From Planctomycetota bacterium (GTDB lineage: Bacteria; Planctomycetota; UBA1135; UBA2386), in NCBI GenBank assembly GCA_965223545.1, contig OZ245006.1, forward strand, positions 4,480,001 through 4,544,000: a stretch of DNA of 64,000 nucleotides, written 5' to 3'. A model generated the notes under the pieces. It made no database searches. It saw nothing but the letters and a program-made list of their open reading frames with translations, and had not been told where the DNA came from. Position numbers and translations under genes: made by a program. The first letter of the stretch is position 1; each line of letters opens with the position of its first letter. Shown here one piece after another: positions 49,211 to 61,773 of this stretch.

Positions 49211-49990
49211 TCACGTCGTCTTCATGATGAAGACGACGGTGTAGAAAGGTGGCAGGTTTACGCCCCCGTGGTCATGCTCTCCATCCACCGCGATGGTATG
49301 GCTATGCGTGTGCGTGTGGTGCCCATCGTCACCGTTCTTCTTTGGCTCACCGCTCGAAGCAGTTTCCCCGGTTCGGCCGCCATGGCTATGCCCGCCATCA
49401 CGAGGGATATCCTCCTGACCACCTTCAACTTGCGACTGGTCTATGTATTGCACGCCGCGTAAGAACCGGCTGTTCAGGTTTGGTGTGCCGTTCTTGCCAT
49501 CACAAATCACCCACTCCTTTGGTGGCTCAGGCTGGGTGGGTGTCGGGACCCAGGCAAGAATTGTCCCGACGGGAACTGAGCGGGCGAGTGCATTCCCTGA
49601 CGCCGTCACGGCGTTGTTGGCGAGTCTCTTTGCGTCGCCGGCATTGTCCACGGCCTCGTCGACGCGGCCGGATAACACCTTGCTCGCATCATCCGCCTGA
49701 GCTGCTTTGCTCTCGGCACGTGTAGCGACGAGTTCTGCGGTTGCGGACTTTTCCTCTGCCTTATCGGCGTCTTCTCGAGCCAGCACTGCGAGAGCAGACG
49801 CTCTCTCGGCTTTCTCCCTAGCTTGGCCAACAAGCCCGTAAAGACCGCTTTGTGCGCTGGGATCCCCAACGTCCTTCCTCAAGCTCGAAACGTCGTAGGC
49901 TCCCCGGGTGAAGAAGGCGGTTCCCGCGATGGCTGCCGAGATGAGCGAGAGAGCGAGTGCCGCGAGGGCAATTTTATCACCGTTTTCCAT
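49211..49990 (-). CDS. Membrane-anchored coiled-coil protein with phage tail-collar-like C-terminal domain
   Basis: MENGDKIALAALALSLISAAIAG (TM); Ala/Lys/Glu-rich coiled coil; VPVGTILAW...PPKEWVICDGKNGTPNL..RFLRG...HTHTHSH...NLPPFYTVVFIMK. Confidence 0.8.
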   Translation of the reverse strand: MENGDKIALAALALSLISAAIAGTAFFTRGAYDVSSLRKDVGDPSAQSGLYGLVGQAREKAERASALAVLAREDADKAEEKSATAELVATRAESKAAQADDASKVLSGRVDEAVDNAGDAKRLANNAVTASGNALARSVPVGTILAWVPTPTQPEPPKEWVICDGKNGTPNLNSRFLRGVQYIDQSQVEGGQEDIPRDGGHSHGGRTGETASSGEPKKNGDDGHHTHTHSHTIAVDGEHDHGGVNLPPFYTVVFIMKTT

Positions 49991-50262
49991 TCTTGTTTCC
50001 TCAACGAGTCCCAAGCATCTCCTCCACGCTGCGATATTCCAGACGTTGGGGCAGCGCAGCCACAACTCGACCGCATGGTCTACCCTCCCGGCCCTCTCGA
50101 GATGCCCCGATGCCGCAGGAGCCACGTCTCGCCCATCTTCTTGCCTGACGGACCAGCCCTTGATGAGACTCATCTGACCCTCGTTGAGGTTCCCACACGG
50201 TTCCCACACTAGGTTCGCGAGCAGGTGCTCAACAGCGAGTAACGGTCGCTAGCAGTCCGTTG

Positions 50263-52177
50263 GTGCGCCGGGAGACCGGCGGAGTGTAGCGAATGAAAGA
50301 GTCGTACGATGAAGGTTGGCGAGCCACGTCGACCCCGAGTCATGCGCCGTCACCCGCGAGGGTGGAGGTGAAGCGTTGACAGGGGCACACGCAGGCCAGG
50401 CTATTGAGCCGCGAAAACTGCTACTTCGGGATGCCGACGCAGTCAACGGATGCGGAAGGCAACACCAGCGCCAGCGAGATCGCCTGCTGGCGCAGGATCC
50501 CGCGCGGGCTGAGAACCAGGGCATGCGTGGAAGCACTCCGCACGGGAACCGGGAGATCTCAGACTTGCCCCGAGGGGAGGGCCCTCGGGGACGCATCGGG
50601 AAGTCTCAGGACGCAATCCGGTGACGCACGAGCCTGAGAAGTCGGACAGCTTCGTAGTACCGGAGAAGCAGCCGAACAAAGCTGGGCAACCGGCGGCGGA
50701 GGCCGTGGAGGAAAGGAAGCTGGCCAAGGGAAACTCGCGAGAGCAAAACGCGCCCCGGACTCAGCGCCGGATCAGCGCGCACAGCGCGCTCGAGCGGGTA
50801 CGTGAAGCAGCAAGGAGGAACAGGAAACAGCAGTTCACTGCGCTCCTACACCACGTCTACGACGTCGATCGTCTTCGGGTTGCGTATCACGCCATCCGGC
50901 GCGATGCAGCCCCCGGCGTCGACGGCGTGACATGGGCGGCCTACGGGGAGCACCTGGAGGATCGTCTCCAGGGCCTCGCGGCTCGCCTTCGGCGCGGAGC
51001 GTATCGAGCGAAGCCGGTGCAGAGGGCCTACGTGCCAAAGGTGGACGGGCGACAGCGTCCCATCGGTCTACCGACGCTGGAGGACAAGATCGTCCAGCGC
51101 GCGGTGGTCGAGGTCCTGAACGCCATCTACGAGACCGACTTCCTCGACTTCAGCTACGGCTTCCGTCCGAAGCGCAGCCCGCACATGGCGCTGGACGCAC
51201 TGACGACGGGAATCATGACACGGAAGGTGAACTGGGTGCTCGATGCCGACATCCGTGGCTTCTTCGATGCCCTCGACCACGGCTGGCTGGTGAAGTTTCT
51301 CGAGCACCACATCGGTGACCGGCGAGTGATTCGACTCATCCAAGAGTGGCTGCACGCCGGAGTCCTGGAGGGCGGGCGCCGAGTGCGTAGCGACAAGGGC
51401 ACGGTCCAGGGCGGGAGTATCAGTCCGCTGTTGGCCAACGTGTTCCTGCACTACGTGTTCGACCTGTGGATCCAACAGTGGCGCCAGACGCGGGCGCGCG
51501 GCGACGTCGTCGTCGTGCGCTTCGCCGATGACTTCGCTGTGGGCTTCGAGCACCGCGAGGAAGCGGAGGCGTTCCACAAGGAGCTGGCGGAGCGCTTCGC
51601 CAGCTTCGGTCTGGAACTGCATCCCGAGAAGACCCGGTTGCTCCGGTTCGGGCGCCACGCGCGCAAGGACGAGAGCGACGACGGTCGCACCGGGCCCCCC
51701 GCGACCTTCAAGTTCCTGGGATTCACGCACATCTGCGGGAAGACCAGGGCCGGCCGATTCACGGTCTACCGCCGAACGGCCACCAAGACACTCCAGCTGA
51801 AGTTGCGGGGGATCCGTGAGGCGCTCCGGCGCCGGAGGCATCTCCCCATCCCCGAGCAAGGGCGCTACCTGCGCTCCGTCGTGCTCGGGCATGTCCGCTA
51901 CTTCGGCGTGCCGATGAACAGCGGGGCGATCACTCGCTTCCGCCACATCGTCATACAGCTGTGGAAACGCAGCCTGGAGCGTCGCAGCCAACGGGGTCGC
52001 ATCCTCTGGGATCGCATGACGCGGCTCGCCGCAGCATGGCTCCCTCCGGCCCGAGTCTGTCATCCCTACCCTCTCGTGCGGCTTGGCGTCATCACCCGAG
52101 GCAGGAGCCCAGTGCGGTAGTCCCGCACGCTGGGATCTGAACGGGGGGCGTCGGGCAACCGGCGTCCCTACCGTGAC
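50263..52177 (+). mobile_element. Group II intron (IIB-like branch spacing), apparently full length
   Basis: 5' GTGCG at 50263; domain V GAGCCCAGTGCG...CGCACGCTGGGATC (52105-52137); domain VI hairpin with bulged A 8 nt from the 3' AC end at 52177; EBS loops match the 5' exon. Confidence 0.92.
50621..52120 (+). CDS. ltrA: Group II intron reverse transcriptase/maturase, no HNH endonuclease
   Basis: AAPGVDG; RPIGLPTLEDKIVQ; SYGFRPKRSPH; VLDADIRGFFD; GTVQGGSISPLLAN; RFADD; LHPEKT; FKFLGF. Confidence 0.95.
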   Translation: MTHEPEKSDSFVVPEKQPNKAGQPAAEAVEERKLAKGNSREQNAPRTQRRISAHSALERVREAARRNRKQQFTALLHHVYDVDRLRVAYHAIRRDAAPGVDGVTWAAYGEHLEDRLQGLAARLRRGAYRAKPVQRAYVPKVDGRQRPIGLPTLEDKIVQRAVVEVLNAIYETDFLDFSYGFRPKRSPHMALDALTTGIMTRKVNWVLDADIRGFFDALDHGWLVKFLEHHIGDRRVIRLIQEWLHAGVLEGGRRVRSDKGTVQGGSISPLLANVFLHYVFDLWIQQWRQTRARGDVVVVRFADDFAVGFEHREEAEAFHKELAERFASFGLELHPEKTRLLRFGRHARKDESDDGRTGPPATFKFLGFTHICGKTRAGRFTVYRRTATKTLQLKLRGIREALRRRRHLPIPEQGRYLRSVVLGHVRYFGVPMNSGAITRFRHIVIQLWKRSLERRSQRGRILWDRMTRLAAAWLPPARVCHPYPLVRLGVITRGRSPVR

Positions 52178-53558
52178 AACAAAGGGTGATCCGAGCGCGC
52201 GGGAAGAACCGGATGTCCATCGGCCTCGAGTCGCCGATCCGCCGAATCCGCCCGACGATTTGAACGACCCAGGAGTCGATTCGAGTTCGGATAGAAGCGC
52301 GGGTCTCGAGACAGGCCAGTAGAAGGCCGCGGAGCCCGCTCTGGATTGCCCTCGGTGTCCCGATCCCGAACAAGCTCCGCATGATCGTCCCGAGGTTGCG
52401 TGCTGCGGCGTGAATCACGTACCGCTTTTTGATGTCGTCGATCCCTCGCAGCCACGTTCGTCGCGCTGCTCCTGACTCGCAGGTGTGAGCAAAGCTGCGT
52501 TCGACCCGCTCGCTCCGGTGTCGTTGGAGCGTCCTTGATCGTGGGCCTGCGACTCGTCGTCGGTTGGCTCGATACGCCTTCTGCCACGACGCGGGCTTGT
52601 CGATCCACTTGCGCTTCCGTTGTAGTCGCGGCTGCGGGATGTAGGTGCGTATGCCGCGCTCGCCCAGCCAGGCGAGTGTCTCGGTCTTGTGGTAGCCCTT
52701 GTCGGCGACGACCTCTTCGTACGAATTGTTGTGCTCGGCGCCAACGAGCATGGCCTCGGCTTCCACAATCGCGTCCTTCAGCGCCTCGCTGTCAGCGGTG
52801 TCGGCATGATGGATCGTCGCGGCGACGAGGATCTCGGACTCGGTGTCGAGCGCGTGCTGCGCTTTGTACGCGAGGTGCGTCCGTCCGTCCTTCATCTTCG
52901 TGATCCGGCTGTCGGGGTCGGTCGGCGACTCCCAATCTTTGTTCGAGACCTTCTTCCCGCGGCGTTTGCGATCGAATCGCCGTAGGTCCTCCTCCGTGGG
53001 GTCTTCGATGCCCTCTCCCTTTGCGAGCTCACGCACGTAGTCGCTCCAGCCCTTGCCGGTGTCCTTGCGGACGATCGACTTCATCGCGGCGTTGGCTTCC
53101 AGCGTGGTCGTGTCCACGGCCAGCGCCTTGCCCCTCACCATGCCCTTGGACTTCGCGATCTTGACGACCAAGGCGAACACCTCTTCGTGAACCTCCACCG
53201 GCAACCGCTTGCGGATCACGGTCAGACTGGAGTGATCAGGTGTGCGCTCAGTCGGTAGCAACCCAAGGAAGTCCTGCAGCGAGCGGCTGTCGCTGCAGCG
53301 CCAGGCAATCCCGCGCTGCGACCCAACTCCCTCGAAGTACCCGACCAGAAGCATCCGGAAGTAGACGCCTGGCGGAATCGACGGGCGGCCGCCTTCCTTG
53401 TAATACGGCTCGCACAGCGACTCGACGTGGTGGTCGAACTCCGCCCCGGCGAGAAGCTCGTTGAGCTTCGAGTAAAACGGATGGCCCGGGGACCGAGGAA
53501 GGCTCGTAGTCGGGACCAAGAGCTCTTGCTGCTTTGCGCGTCGCTTGCCGAGTGCCAT
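52092..53558 (-). CDS. IS1182-family transposase (C-terminus altered by the intron)
   Basis: GRPSIPP..YFRMLL; PDHSSL; AVDTT; TDPDSR; ADKGY; VERSFAH. The native end would be RITLCSTDC-TAG at the CTAG. Confidence 0.9.
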   Translation of the reverse strand: MALGKRRAKQQELLVPTTSLPRSPGHPFYSKLNELLAGAEFDHHVESLCEPYYKEGGRPSIPPGVYFRMLLVGYFEGVGSQRGIAWRCSDSRSLQDFLGLLPTERTPDHSSLTVIRKRLPVEVHEEVFALVVKIAKSKGMVRGKALAVDTTTLEANAAMKSIVRKDTGKGWSDYVRELAKGEGIEDPTEEDLRRFDRKRRGKKVSNKDWESPTDPDSRITKMKDGRTHLAYKAQHALDTESEILVAATIHHADTADSEALKDAIVEAEAMLVGAEHNNSYEEVVADKGYHKTETLAWLGERGIRTYIPQPRLQRKRKWIDKPASWQKAYRANRRRVAGPRSRTLQRHRSERVERSFAHTCESGAARRTWLRGIDDIKKRYVIHAAARNLGTIMRSLFGIGTPRAIQSGLRGLLLACLETRASIRTRIDSWVVQIVGRIRRIGDSRPMDIRFFPRARITLCCHGRDAGCPTPPVQIPACGTTALGSCLG

Positions 53559-53763
53559 GGGGATCCGTCTCCAGTGATCGAGACATGATCCCTACGTACG
53601 TCGAGCACATCACGACAGGTCGATCTCGATGTTCTTCAACGGCCTGCTAGACACCCAAGTCGCCCTGAACCAAGGGGCCTGACTTGACGCGCAGGGCTGT
53701 CCCGGCTCTGCTGCTGGCTCACCTGACCCTGTGGCTGATCAACCAGGGCAGTGCCCCCTATTC

Positions 53764-54177
53764 ATGGCAACCAAGAAAGGCAAGCAGGCCTACGACTTCG
53801 TCGTTGCGGCTCTGAAGAGAAACAACAAGGTAGAGTTCGCTACTGTTCGCGATGCGGCAGCGAGAAAGGGCATCACCCTCTACCCCATCGTCTACGGCCG
53901 AGCGAAGGCGGCGCTTGGGCTTGTGCCATCCAGGAAACGAGGCGAGGCCAAGGCGGCTCGTGAAAAGGCCGCAGCGAGCAGCCACCGGGGGCCGGGTCGT
54001 CCGAGGAAGACTCAGGCGAGACGTGGTCCGGGACGGCCGCCGAAGAGTCGTTCAACGGGCACGCCGCTCGATGCCGTCCGAGAACTCGCCCAAACCATGC
54101 AGGAGACGGGCCGAGAGAACACACAGCTTCGAGCTACCCTCGAGAAGATTCGGGACCTCATCGACCGAGCGCTCTGA
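53764..54177 (+). CDS. Small basic protein with two AT-hook-like motifs and a C-terminal coiled coil
   Basis: RGPGRPRK and RRGPGRPPK; Lys/Arg-rich; heptad tail ENTQLRATLEKIRDLI. Confidence 0.8.
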   Translation: MATKKGKQAYDFVVAALKRNNKVEFATVRDAAARKGITLYPIVYGRAKAALGLVPSRKRGEAKAAREKAAASSHRGPGRPRKTQARRGPGRPPKSRSTGTPLDAVRELAQTMQETGRENTQLRATLEKIRDLIDRAL

Positions 54178-54862: not shown

Positions 54863-55207
54863 ATGCGGCGGATGACGAAGAGAATCCCCGTGTGGGCTCG
54901 GGCGGAGATGCGCGAGCTGCTTCAAGAGCTGGACAACTCAGGCGTGACGGTCGCCGAGTTCGCGCGCCGGCGTGGAGTCAACGCAAACCGCATCTACTGG
55001 GCAAGGCGGCAAGCCCGAGCTGCGGCGGCGCCCACGTCCGCGCCGGCGGTGTCGGACTTCGGGGAGCTGGTGGTCGCTGCGGCCCCATCGCCGCGACGAG
55101 CAGCGGCCATTGAGTTGCGGGTGCCGTCGGGCGCGGTTGTCGATGTGCAGCGCGACTTCGACGAGGCGACGCTCCGACGGCTGCTCGGAGTCTTGCTGCC
55201 ATGCTGA
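54863..55207 (+). CDS. tnpA: IS66 accessory protein TnpA (HTH)
   Basis: SGVTVAEFARRRGV...IYW; IELRVPSG...FDEATLRRLL. Confidence 0.85.
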   Translation: MRRMTKRIPVWARAEMRELLQELDNSGVTVAEFARRRGVNANRIYWARRQARAAAAPTSAPAVSDFGELVVAAAPSPRRAAAIELRVPSGAVVDVQRDFDEATLRRLLGVLLPC

Positions 55208-55581
55208 GCTTTCCGCCCTCGCCGCAAGTCAAGATCTTCGTTTGCCGGAAGCCGGTGGACATGAGGAAGAGCTTCAGTGGTCTGTCCGGTGCGGTCATCG
55301 ACGTGGTCGACCACGACCCGCAATCTGGTCACCTCTTCCTCTTCTTCAACAAGCGCCGGACCATGATGAAGGCACTGGTGTGGGAGCCGTCCGGTTACTG
55401 GGTGCTGGCGAAGCGACTGACGAGCGGCCGCTTTCAGGTCTTCGATCGCTCGGCTGAGAACAACAGCCGATTCGAGATTGCGAGTAGCGATCTCGCGCTC
55501 TTGTTGGACGGCATCGACCTCCGTGGCGCGCGACGCAGAGAAGTTCGCGATCAGGTGCTGCAACGACTGGCCGTGACTTGA
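55201..55581 (+). CDS. tnpB: IS66 accessory protein TnpB
   Basis: PVDMRKSFSGL; LFLFFNKRR; K.LVWE..GYW..KRL..GRF. Confidence 0.93.
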   Translation: MLSFPPSPQVKIFVCRKPVDMRKSFSGLSGAVIDVVDHDPQSGHLFLFFNKRRTMMKALVWEPSGYWVLAKRLTSGRFQVFDRSAENNSRFEIASSDLALLLDGIDLRGARRREVRDQVLQRLAVT

Positions 55582-55611
55582 TCCGTCTCCGGTTTGTGTT
55601 AATCAGAGGGA

Positions 55612-57165
55612 GTGACGCCGCTCACGGACCTCGACGAAGCCAACTCGACGATCGTCAAGCTGCGCGCCGAGATCGAGCGCCTTCGCGGGCAGCTCGAACT
55701 GATGAAGCAGCGCACGTTCGGACGGCGCCGCGAGCACATCAATCCGAACCAACTGCTGTTGTTCGAGGCCGGCGTCGCGCAGCTCGAAGAGCTGCAGAAG
55801 CAGGCGCAGGAAGCGGAGCAGTCGAGCGAACTCGCGAAGCCTGACCCGAAGAAGAAGCGGAAGCGCGGTCACGGTCGCGGTCAGTTCGCCGAGCACCTGG
55901 ATCGGCATGTCGTCGAGGTCGACGTGCCGGAAGCGGAGCGCTGCTGCCCCGAGTGCGGCGAGGCCATGCACTGCATCGGGACTGACGTCACCGAGCGTGG
56001 CCACATCATCCCAGCGCGGTTGGTCGTGAAGCGCTACGTGCGCAACAAGTACGCGTGCCCGCACGGGCACAGGATGAAGATGGCGTCGATGCCTGCCGGC
56101 GTCGTCGAGAAGGCGAAGTACGAGCCCTCCGTCTACGCGCATCTTGTCACAGCGAAGTACGGCGACCACCTGCCGCTGAACCGCCTGCAGGGGATCTTCC
56201 GCCGCTTCGGGGCGCACGTCCCGAAGCAGACCATGTGGGACATGCTGGCGCGCTTCGACGAGATCGCGGCGCGTCCGATCCTGGCCGAGATGCGGCGCCA
56301 GCTGCTTCAAGAAGATGTTCTTCAAGCCGACGAGACCCCGATCAGGGTGCGACTGGAAGGCCAGAAGGGCACCCGGCGCGGTGTGCTCTGGGCCTGGCGG
56401 AACGCTCGCGGCAGCCCCAACGAGATGGTCGTGGCCGACTTCAGGGACAATCGATCCGCGAAGGGGCCCAACGCTTTTCTCGGCGCGTGGTCCGGGACAT
56501 TGTTGACCGATGGCTACGACGGTGTGAACCCGAAAGCGCAGCAGAACGCGATCACGCGGGCTGGCTGCTGGGCGCACGCCCGTCGGAAGTTTCGGGATGC
56601 GCTCACTGCTGGTGCATCACGGGCTGGTTTGGCGCTGCGACCGATCCAGAGGCTTTTCTGGATCGAGCGCGCCGTACTGTCCCGAGCGAAGGATCGGAAC
56701 CTGACCCGTGAAGCCCTCATCGAACTGCGTGAGACCGTTCGTAGCCGCAGATCCAAAGCGGTGCTCCACAGCCTCTACGAGATCGTGTTCGGCCTCCAGG
56801 AGGATCCGGCGACCGCGGGCAACGAACTGCTTCGCAAGGCGGTGAGCTACGCCATCCGGCAGCGGGACCCGTTGCTCGCGCACCTCGACGACGGCCGGCT
56901 GCCGATCCACAACAACGACACCGAACGTGACCTGCGCCACGTCGTGACGGGCCGGAAGAACTGGATGACGCTCGCCAGCGAGAAGGGTGGCAACGTGGCA
57001 GCTCGCCTCTACTCGATCGTGCTCAGCTGCAAGCTGGCGAAGGTCAACGTCGAGCGCTACCTCGAGGACGTCTTGGTCGCTGTCGCCACCACGCCGTCGT
57101 CGCGCATCGCCGAACTCACGCCCTGGGGCTGGGCGAAGGCACGCGCTGCCGGCCAGTCCTGCTGA
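55612..57165 (+). CDS. tnpC: IS66 transposase TnpC
   Basis: FGRRRE; CCPECG zinc ribbon; KYGDHLPLNR; ADET; TDGY; GCWAHARRKF; NNDTER; ELTPW. Confidence 0.95.
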   Translation: MTPLTDLDEANSTIVKLRAEIERLRGQLELMKQRTFGRRREHINPNQLLLFEAGVAQLEELQKQAQEAEQSSELAKPDPKKKRKRGHGRGQFAEHLDRHVVEVDVPEAERCCPECGEAMHCIGTDVTERGHIIPARLVVKRYVRNKYACPHGHRMKMASMPAGVVEKAKYEPSVYAHLVTAKYGDHLPLNRLQGIFRRFGAHVPKQTMWDMLARFDEIAARPILAEMRRQLLQEDVLQADETPIRVRLEGQKGTRRGVLWAWRNARGSPNEMVVADFRDNRSAKGPNAFLGAWSGTLLTDGYDGVNPKAQQNAITRAGCWAHARRKFRDALTAGASRAGLALRPIQRLFWIERAVLSRAKDRNLTREALIELRETVRSRRSKAVLHSLYEIVFGLQEDPATAGNELLRKAVSYAIRQRDPLLAHLDDGRLPIHNNDTERDLRHVVTGRKNWMTLASEKGGNVAARLYSIVLSCKLAKVNVERYLEDVLVAVATTPSSRIAELTPWGWAKARAAGQSC

Positions 57166-59784: not shown

Positions 59785-61773
59785 CCCAACTTCCGCAGTT
59801 CGACGGGTCGTCACGTTGAAAAGCAACGACTTACGTCGATTGGTTGGCACTACATCGCGGTCGAACGGAGTGGCGCGGGGACGGATAGCCTCCTGGGTAG
59901 CTGGATGCCGAGCCGGTCGAGCAGGTGCGCCTGCGCCTCGTTGGGGGTGACCACGCAGCGGACCCGGAGTTCGCGGCCGTCAGTAGTTGGCAGGAGCACG
60001 TCTGCGCTTTGGACCTGACGGAGCTCCTCGAGGATGGCGGCCGGGCTGTTGCCGAGTCCGGCCTTCTCCTGCCAGAGCTCGAGCGTTTTCCACAAGGCGT
60101 AGGCGAGGAAGCAGACGAGGATGTGCGCCCTGACCCGGTCCTCGCGTTGATGCCACACCGGGCGGATCGACAGCTCGGACTTCTGGATCCGAAACGCGGA
60201 CTCAGCATCAGTGAGCTGGATGTACGTCCGCCAAAGCTCCTCATCTGTCCAACCCGTCACGTTGGACCTGAGCAGGTAGCACCCGGCGCTCTGGTCCACC
60301 CAGTTCGTGTTCTCACAAGCCTCCACGGCAAGCCCCGATGGTCGATCCGGGGCTTCGATCAACGAAACCGAGAAGCACGTGGAGGCCCGCGAGTTCTGGG
60401 CCAAGATGCGTCCGATCTGTTGATTGACGCGGTCCCGTTCGATCGACTTCTTCGACGCCGCCAGTCGGCGTTCGAGCGACGCAAGCCTCGCGCGAATGCG
60501 TTCGGCTGCTCGCGCGACAATTGCGGCGTCCTTCTCGATGCGCGCCTGGGAGCGACACAGGATGAACGTCTCCTCCCCGTCCTCGCTCGGGCAGAGCTTG
60601 ACCTCGACATCCTCACGAATGCTGCGCCAGTCTCGACGGTCGACGATCTCCTGTTCGAAGCGGCGCAGGTCCGAACGCGATGCGCCGATGACGTACCGTC
60701 GCCTTCCCTCCTTCAACCATTTCAGGTTGCGCTTGCTCACCATTCCGCGGTCCATGACCCAGATGCGATCAGCAGCACCGAATCGCCGCTCCATCGTCTC
60801 GACGATCTCGCGGACCGTCGTGACGTCAGTCCGATTGCCGTCGAACACTTCGTGCGCAAGAGGGATTCCCTGTCTGGTCACGACCAGAGCGATGCAAACC
60901 TGTTTGCAGTCAGGCCGGTGATCTCGGCTGTAGCCACGCTGCGCCTGGGGGTTGCCCAGCATGAGGCCTTCGAAGTAGGTCGAGGTCACGTCGTAGAGCA
61001 GCAAGTCGTACTGAACGTCGAACAACTCGCCGAGCCGTGCGCGGAGATGCTGCTCCAGCGCCTCTTTGTGCGGCAGGATCTGGTCGAGAGCCCGGTAGAG
61101 CCGGTCGTCGTTGACCTTGCCTTCCGGCAGGCCAAGCAGGTCGTCAAGCGCGGTCTGGCGGTACAGGACTTCAGCCAGGTGCAGCTCGCTGGAGGGCATG
61201 CACAACCGACAGATGACCATCGCTGCCGCCATCGTCGACCACGGGACATCTTCACGGCCCCGCGGCATGAGCTCCCAGAGTGCGTCGTCGAACTTCAGTG
61301 CGTGCCACAGCGCCAGGCCGACGAAAACGTCGCCGAAGCGGCGTGTCCGGTCGAGGCTGACCTCCTTCAAGCGAATCGACTCGACCGGGTCGTCGTCTGT
61401 CACCGGTGGCTCAAACAGGCTCGGGTGCATTCGGCGACCGGTCATCCGATCTGCCAGCGCACGAGCCCGGCGTCGCCCCTTCGCATCCAGTTTGCCCAGC
61501 TGCGCGATCACCTCCTGCCGCACTCGACGACCGTGCCGCACCGACCGAACGAGGAGCCAGTACTCGTGGGTCTTGCCGTTCTTTCTGACCGTCTTGCGTC
61601 GCAGGTACACGTCCGCCGCCTCGCACACAGTTGTCGTGCTCCCTGCCACACCGATCAACGGGGCGGGTTGGCACTACACGGCCGATCTGCGCCGCCGCGA
61701 CGGTGGATAGCGGGCTGGCGCCGCGCCGAGGCTCCGAATTGGCCTCAAAAATCGTCGAGCTGCGGAAGTTGGG
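59785..61773 (-). mobile_element. Complete IS1634-family element
   Basis: IRs CCCAACTTCCGCAGTTCGACG and CGTCGAGCTGCGGAAGTTGGG (1 mismatch), flanked by CTAG at 59781-59784 and 61774-61777. Confidence 0.92.
59850..61610 (-). CDS. IS1634-family transposase
   Basis: YWLLVRSVR; LYRALD; LYDVTSTYFEG; RGYSRDHRPD; VMDRGM; ESAFR..K; RPVWHQ..RVRAHI. GTG start at 61610. Confidence 0.93.
   Translation of the reverse strand: MYLRRKTVRKNGKTHEYWLLVRSVRHGRRVRQEVIAQLGKLDAKGRRRARALADRMTGRRMHPSLFEPPVTDDDPVESIRLKEVSLDRTRRFGDVFVGLALWHALKFDDALWELMPRGREDVPWSTMAAAMVICRLCMPSSELHLAEVLYRQTALDDLLGLPEGKVNDDRLYRALDQILPHKEALEQHLRARLGELFDVQYDLLLYDVTSTYFEGLMLGNPQAQRGYSRDHRPDCKQVCIALVVTRQGIPLAHEVFDGNRTDVTTVREIVETMERRFGAADRIWVMDRGMVSKRNLKWLKEGRRRYVIGASRSDLRRFEQEIVDRRDWRSIREDVEVKLCPSEDGEETFILCRSQARIEKDAAIVARAAERIRARLASLERRLAASKKSIERDRVNQQIGRILAQNSRASTCFSVSLIEAPDRPSGLAVEACENTNWVDQSAGCYLLRSNVTGWTDEELWRTYIQLTDAESAFRIQKSELSIRPVWHQREDRVRAHILVCFLAYALWKTLELWQEKAGLGNSPAAILEELRQVQSADVLLPTTDGRELRVRCVVTPNEAQAHLLDRLGIQLPRRLSVPAPLRSTAM

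Follow-up and report, generated by a model that had tools for sequence, protein, structure and literature searches.

Group II introns that home into the inverted repeats (IRs) of insertion sequences are known from RmInt2 of Sinorhizobium meliloti GR4, which inserts into both IRs of ISRm17 (PMC4615759; PMC5894124, accessible portions). According to the accessible portion of PMC4615759, all seven RmInt2 copies are in ISRm17 IRs, and the authors point out that an IR target offers twice as many sites, one of which is always on the lagging strand. The same portion describes a selection experiment that gave CTAG at positions -16 to -13, with IBS2 at -14 to -10. A copy of ISRm17 (L234) has CTAG at both ends, thus IBS2 of RmInt2 also straddles flank and IR. 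The accessible portions of PMC4615759 and PMC5894124 hold no remark on CTAG as the target duplication of an IS. A related case is RmInt1, which homes into ISRm2011-2 and is reported to block the spread of this IS because it splices poorly (PMC4615759; PMC5894124, accessible portions). RmInt1 is likewise specialised on an IS, but it is of class D and its target is not described in these portions as an inverted repeat, i.e., there is one site per element. The strategy of IR homing is therefore itself not new, as it is already published for RmInt2 in the CTAG-flanked ISRm17. A literature search, with subscription papers outside its coverage, gave nothing relevant on an IR-homing intron in IS1182, IS5 or a MITE.

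The window is a 64,000 nt stretch of a Planctomycetota genome of 8.1 Mb. It has an intact group II intron of 1,915 nt with GTGCG as its first bases and ...GAC as its last. It lies in an IS1182/IS5-like element, whose right IR it splits after base 10. The locus adds a class E/F-like intron, with IS1182/IS5-like elements as hosts, to the one published case of IR homing (class D, ISNCY); the general understanding of group II introns is unchanged. The features are as follows.

50249-50252, no strand: right target duplication CTAG (transposase 3' side), with TAG as outer half of IBS2 on the + strand
50253-50262, + strand: outer 10 bp of the right IR, with the remainder of IBS2 (50253-50255), the probable linker (50256) and IBS1 (50257-50262)
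50263-52177, + strand: group II intron, IIB-like with class E/F features, a single copy in this genome
50417-50423, + strand: EBS2; the core 50418-50423 pairs with -8 to -13, and A50417 may pair with -7
50444-50449, + strand: EBS1 in the d3 loop, pairs with -1 to -6
50510-50510, + strand: EBS3 (U), pairs with IBS3 A52178, from covariation
50621-52120, + strand: intron-encoded RT/maturase, 499 aa, FADD motif, without endonuclease domain
52103-52177, + strand: domains V and VI, with AGC triad, AC bulge, 5-nt D5 loop and 3' end AC
52092-53558, - strand: DDE transposase, IS1182/IS5-like; the frame gives 488 aa in its present form and 464 aa once the intron is removed
52178-52182, + strand: inner right IR, bases 11-15, set 1915 bp from the tip by the intron
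53632-53646, - strand: left IR, a vacant target on the leading-strand template
53647-53650, no strand: CTAG target duplication at the left end

Removal of the intron in silico gives an element of 1,479 bp with CTAG on each side, and the restored right IR shares 13 of its 15 bases with the left IR. A second copy of the IS (C1:7,696,880-7,698,365) is 84% identical and intron-free; it has an uninterrupted IR and CTAG at both ends. These comparisons bear out the first-pass annotation, which had proposed that an intron at 50263-52177 splits the IR of an IS, and all its coordinates check. The same annotation assigned the element to IS1182. This is the best-scoring family of the transposase (NF033551, 197 bits), but the score is under the cut-off of 270, and the score against IS5_4 is also under its cut-off (95 bits, cut-off 140); "IS1182/IS5-like" is thus the safe label. 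The element has the DUF772 and DDE domains (Pfam), the short terminal IRs and the 4-bp duplication expected of an IS1182/IS5-like DDE element. Two plasmid elements with 46–48% identical transposases are flanked by CTAA and TTTG, respectively, and TTAG is found in L096, so that the duplication is 4 bp in length but not always CTAG.

The intron is antisense to the transposase gene. The last four residues of the protein are replaced by 28 that are read from the intron antisense strand. In both genomic copies the intron-free reading frame is 464 aa and runs through the right IR to a stop provided by the duplication; on the - strand of the window this is TAG at 50251-50249. Neither copy of the IS (53558-52178(-) in the window and C1:7,696,971-7,698,365) has a stop codon of its own, and both end at the TAG of the duplication. 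In the surroundings, an IS66 element with three ORFs (54863-57165) and an IS1634 element (59850-61658) form a mobile-element cluster within 10 kb. The flanking ORFs at 49211-50209(-), 332 aa, and 53731-54177(+), 148 aa, have no match in Pfam or NCBIfam. The latter, scanned from its ATG, is a basic protein with repeated GPGRP motifs.

The intron has the properties of a group II intron, i.e., a domain I fold, a D5 with AGC triad and bulge, a D6, and GUGYG...AY ends. The Rfam match to RF02005 (domain I) is at 50298-50517 with 180.8 bits. The match to RF00029 has 33.6 bits (E 5e-5), which does not reach the gathering score of 40; it ends exactly at 52177. The RT/maturase ORF is in domain IV and matches TIGR04416 with 344.6 bits (cut-off 300). 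RVT_1 is the sole Pfam domain in the 499 aa, which makes the protein endonuclease-less, as class E/F requires. The alpha' sequence UCGC (50480-83) is in a terminal loop, and its complement is GCGA at 50319-22. Both alpha' at a stem-loop tip and the 5-nt D5 loop are class E/F traits by the criterion in the accessible part of PMC3753933. The intron thus resembles group IIE and IIF introns, as the accessible parts of PMC3753933 and PMC3552965 describe them, in its IIB-like RNA, the alpha' in a terminal loop, the 5-nt D5 loop and the lack of an endonuclease; IR targeting by such introns is not mentioned in these parts. Class D was considered and rejected, as the RT ends in ...RVCHPYP... and is without the LX3AX3PXLF[V/A]HW motif. 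The HPYP tail is a putative mark of class E. An RT of the RmInt2 type (L233) has an LFVHW C-terminus and is 32% identical to the window RT. A scan of 49900-53800 revealed no sigma-70-type promoter, and no RNA run is listed among the sequencing runs that hold the locus.

Secondary structure modeling shows EBS1 within a 9-nt loop of a CGCA/UGCG stem and EBS2 within a 13-nt single-stranded bulge. Against the IR and the duplicated TAG, all 13 guide bases pair (EBS1 6/6, EBS2 6/6, EBS3 1/1). Comparative evidence comes from 22 related introns, those parsed out of 26 loci given, of which two are near-duplicates. In this set the pairing of a guide with its own flank is 5.73 vs 3.85 for EBS1 and 4.61 vs 3.96 for EBS2, in each case above all 5000 shuffles. 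In all 16 rows with a known first 3'-exon base, this base pairs with the homologue of U50510 (15 Watson-Crick pairs and one wobble), which is therefore EBS3; the alignment has 25 rows, several of which are copies of one intron. The initial placement of EBS1 CAACGG in the CGCA/TGCG loop, paired with IBS1 CCGTTG, thus agrees with folding and covariation. For EBS2, all seven bases of ACTGCTA had been paired with TAGCAGT (50250-50256). The bulge position and the core 50418-23 were confirmed, but base -7 is probably an unpaired linker between IBS1 and IBS2.

The target site consists of TAG from the target duplication, CAG, one linker base and the six IBS1 bases, followed by A. The 13 nt had been described as the TAG of CTAG plus the first 10 nt of the IR, and this description is correct; the TAG comes from the 4-bp duplication. 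Base -7 is the fourth base of the IR and is variable (T, G or A among seven sites). The opposite end of the IS had been called a near-perfect vacant site. It is vacant, but since base -7 is both a probable linker and a variable IR base, this end is a full match and not a near match. Both ends of the host IS score 6/6 for EBS1 and 6/6 for EBS2, which is the pairing at both element ends found with RmInt2-type introns.

With any base allowed at the linker, there are seven full matches to the 13-base site in the 8.1-Mb genome, where 0.27 are expected by chance (order-5 Markov model). All seven are IS or MITE ends, and no full match is present elsewhere in the genome. The MITE family is about 160 bp, has the same ends as the IS, and comprises three full copies and some fragments. 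In two of the three full copies the flanking 4-mers are mismatched. The full copies are:

C1:4,474,691-4,474,857: full MITE, ends vacant
C1:3,035,335-3,035,502: full MITE, ends vacant
C1:5,347,946-5,348,110: full MITE, ends vacant

Only one of the seven full sites is occupied. Cumulative GC skew reaches a minimum at 4.017 Mb and a maximum at 0.140 Mb. Given the minimum, the occupied site (+ strand) belongs to the lagging template and the vacant left end to the leading template; for a strand preference this is a single observation with even odds. Among the six vacant sites, three are on the lagging template. The window intron is the single copy in the genome, and with three fully pairing lagging-template sites vacant, it has not spread there. 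The first-pass annotation had expected the intron to gain new sites as the IS spreads; these counts do not show such spread. T is found at the linker in only two of the seven full sites, and the second T site is on the leading template; the intron may therefore need T at this base.

A candidate second insertion at C1:1,936,700, where GTGCG follows an IR-like sequence, was rejected as there is no intron-like sequence downstream. The genome has a second group II intron family of about 2,033 nt with the 5' end UUGCG (Rfam RF02001) and an RT that is about 40% identical. There are 14 near-identical copies on C1, most within one GC-rich interspersed repeat, and 10 of the 14 are on the lagging template. 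Example copies are:

C1:7,636,863, + strand: RF02001-type intron
C1:6,352,490, - strand: RF02001-type intron
C1:6,354,795, - strand: RF02001-type intron
C1:6,355,037, + strand: RF02001-type intron

A comparison with RmInt2 shows an endonuclease-less intron in both cases, with an IS IR as target and two sites per element on opposite strands. Both also have a U-A EBS3/IBS3 pair and an IBS2 that reaches into CTAG. RmInt2 has a lagging-template bias, and the occupied site in the window is likewise on the lagging template. RmInt2 is of class D; it has seven copies, inserts after IR base 12 and uses a linker of 2 nt. The window intron, with class E/F features, has a single copy, inserts after base 10, uses a linker of 1 nt and, unlike RmInt2, also disrupts the end of the transposase reading frame. 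The host elements differ as well; ISRm17 is an ISNCY element (523.8 bits, cut-off 325) and its IR sequence is unrelated to that of the window IS. Several independent copies in IRs, a further RmInt2-type property, are not found for the window intron (one copy) but are found in a second lineage (L096, L152, L159, L187 and L258).

The nearest RT (protein P0001) is 92% identical to the window RT and the next is 74% identical. Intron DNA searches of 301 genomes of the class gave any match in 100, the best other than the window intron at 71%. Domain I searches gave four matches in 301 genomes of the order, own genome included, and 5 of 201 and 3 of 201 around G589 and G588, respectively, where none of the parsed matches is in this IR. 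The junction pattern was found in the own genome only among 301 genomes of the phylum, with no second copy in the 300 others, and in none of five named-locus genomes. Viral contigs gave 4 and 32 pattern matches with no intron among them, and no RT relative. Plasmids hold only relatives of about 65–68%; the 5' end of one plasmid intron, L232, could not be parsed. A total of 28 junctions were parsed, 19 of them from relatives (about 55–75% alike) chosen by homology alone. None of these 19 uses this IR as target, a count that concerns this IR family and not the ends of other elements. The proposed check by tabulating copies thus gave a single copy in the genome and no relative in this IR. The idea of a retroelement specialised on a DNA transposon is upheld for the window intron by the 13 of 13 pairing with IR and duplication and by an independent lineage on the same IR family, but the counts do not support it for the wider lineage.

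This second lineage was found by a metagenome scan for the EBS1 stem loop with a loose pattern, which matched at least 120 stretches. Eight introns were recognised by inspection among the matches listed, and four of the eight (L096, L152, L159 and L187) have inserted into the IR family of the window IS, each with a different outer flank. These were picked by EBS1, so they demonstrate recurrence and not frequency. With L258 there are five flanks, and the insertion is at IR base 11, one base further in; L187 is absent from the junction parse, as it was dropped by the parser. L152 occupies the left IR of an element that scores 265.8 bits as IS5 (cut-off 140), and L096 a MITE of about 140 bp. EBS2 of this lineage pairs poorly (3 to 4.5 of 6). 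A domain I search with L152 gave one match in 301 genomes of the phylum of G586 and none in 301 of its order, and a plasmid search for L096 relatives at E 1e-100 gave nothing. Genome G768, from the phylum of an Acidobacteriaceae record, holds a 76%-identical relative with a changed EBS1 that pairs 6/6 with the local IR variant. It is inserted at the same IR position, and the ends of that copy are degenerate. Only one of 18 such IR ends in G768 is occupied. Contigs C1-C21 of G768 have a MITE family with 18 matching ends, nearly all after CTAG, vs six control matches.

The RTs of the second lineage are 53–55% identical to the window RT. A clade of L096 and L152 with the window RT is rejected by the AU test (p=0.003; quick tree, LG+G4, on the 18 rows that remain of the 28-row tree after removal of long branches, near-duplicates and partial rows). 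Rejection of one clade requires either two origins or several losses. Two origins appear likelier, given the free retargeting of relatives. The CAG-N-YY-GT(T/G)G(A/T)-AAA type end is common to IS5- and IS1182-like elements and to MITEs across phyla. A tentative but plausible reading is that this end has been colonised at least twice independently by class E-like introns, with EBS1 tracking IR variants, and that the IS is hardly able to escape. The guides of the window intron would read the duplication TAG, which is also the transposase stop, and skip the variable IR base; the IS would thus have little room to mutate away. If this is true, the CAG-N-YY-type end represents a standing niche that is entered at adjacent positions, an apparent convergence of introns on one IR family. 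The second lineage with its putative compensatory EBS1 change, and the CTAG that would double as transposase stop and intron binding site, are the most interesting additions of the present analysis.

The most probable explanation, held with good confidence, is an endonuclease-less intron whose homing site is the tip of an IS1182/IS5-like family and its MITEs. Pairing lends good support to the predicted IR specificity; it is this pairing that defines the home site, and not repeated insertions, there being one copy. By analogy, the intron can be taken to work like RmInt2, though it is not of class D. As in RmInt1 and RmInt2, the intron RNA with its RT would reverse-splice into single-stranded DNA at the replication fork, mostly on the lagging-strand template. 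EBS2 would pair with TAG and CAG, i.e., duplication and IR tip, the variable fourth IR base would be skipped, and IR bases 5–10 and 11 would pair with EBS1 and EBS3, respectively. Two opposite-facing ends would always place one end of each element on the favoured strand; in the window IS this is the occupied end, and the opposite one is vacant. Further IS or MITE insertions at CTAG would create new sites. The insertion probably impairs the host copy in cis by parting IR bases 1–10 from 11–15, while all but the end of the transposase is retained. The intron appears to have arrived once in this genome, with no spread.

Alternatively, the intron may be a passenger and not a blocker, having homed once, perhaps in another host, with the IS still moving as a 3.4-kb unit. 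The target would be chosen in the way just described, and the IS would serve as a vehicle. Both outer 10-bp tips of the IS and the CTAG flanks are intact, so the IS might still carry the intron, and a 460-residue transposase core is also intact. The single intron copy while vacant sites are nearby, and the presence of the IS66 and IS1634 elements in the region, are consistent with this. Yet the A-rich IR bases 11–15, kept at the intron-free ends in the genome, are missing from the tip of the split end; searches of the own genome and of 300 others of the phylum gave no second copy of the intron with the IS; and the two complete cases of the second lineage are in different hosts (MITE and IS5), which means separate homing events. 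Such carriage is considered unlikely. The locus represents a compact test system for an intron as blocker vs rider of its host IS.

The guides could also have been shaped by another target, with the IR a secondary site that fits by chance. Relatives retarget freely, and L091, L117, L130 and L146 have a similar EBS1 core yet are outside this IR; EBS1 of L117 and L146 is identical to that of the window intron. However, these two have a different EBS2 and belong to another clade, the ectopic sites of relatives carry mismatches whereas the window site pairs 13 of 13, and the genome offers no full match outside the elements. A chance fit is therefore very improbable. An assembly artefact joining intron and IS, suggested only by both being repeat-type elements, has a negligible probability, as contigs of run X4 span the two junctions without a single difference, the exons rejoin into an IR that matches the second IS copy, and the guides pair with the flanks. 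Run X4 is another sample from the same study as the best holder, and it shows a real junction and not an independent occurrence. An intron-less joint is absent among 15 of 19 joints listed in four contig sets, which has no weight as evidence.

L117 and L146 have a GAAAGCG-type 5' end. A second RT gene follows L117, so this intron may lie close to where another one begins. At L266/L269 (G1528:C12) a related intron is located within a sequence that resembles the RT coding region of another copy, and these are apparently nested introns.
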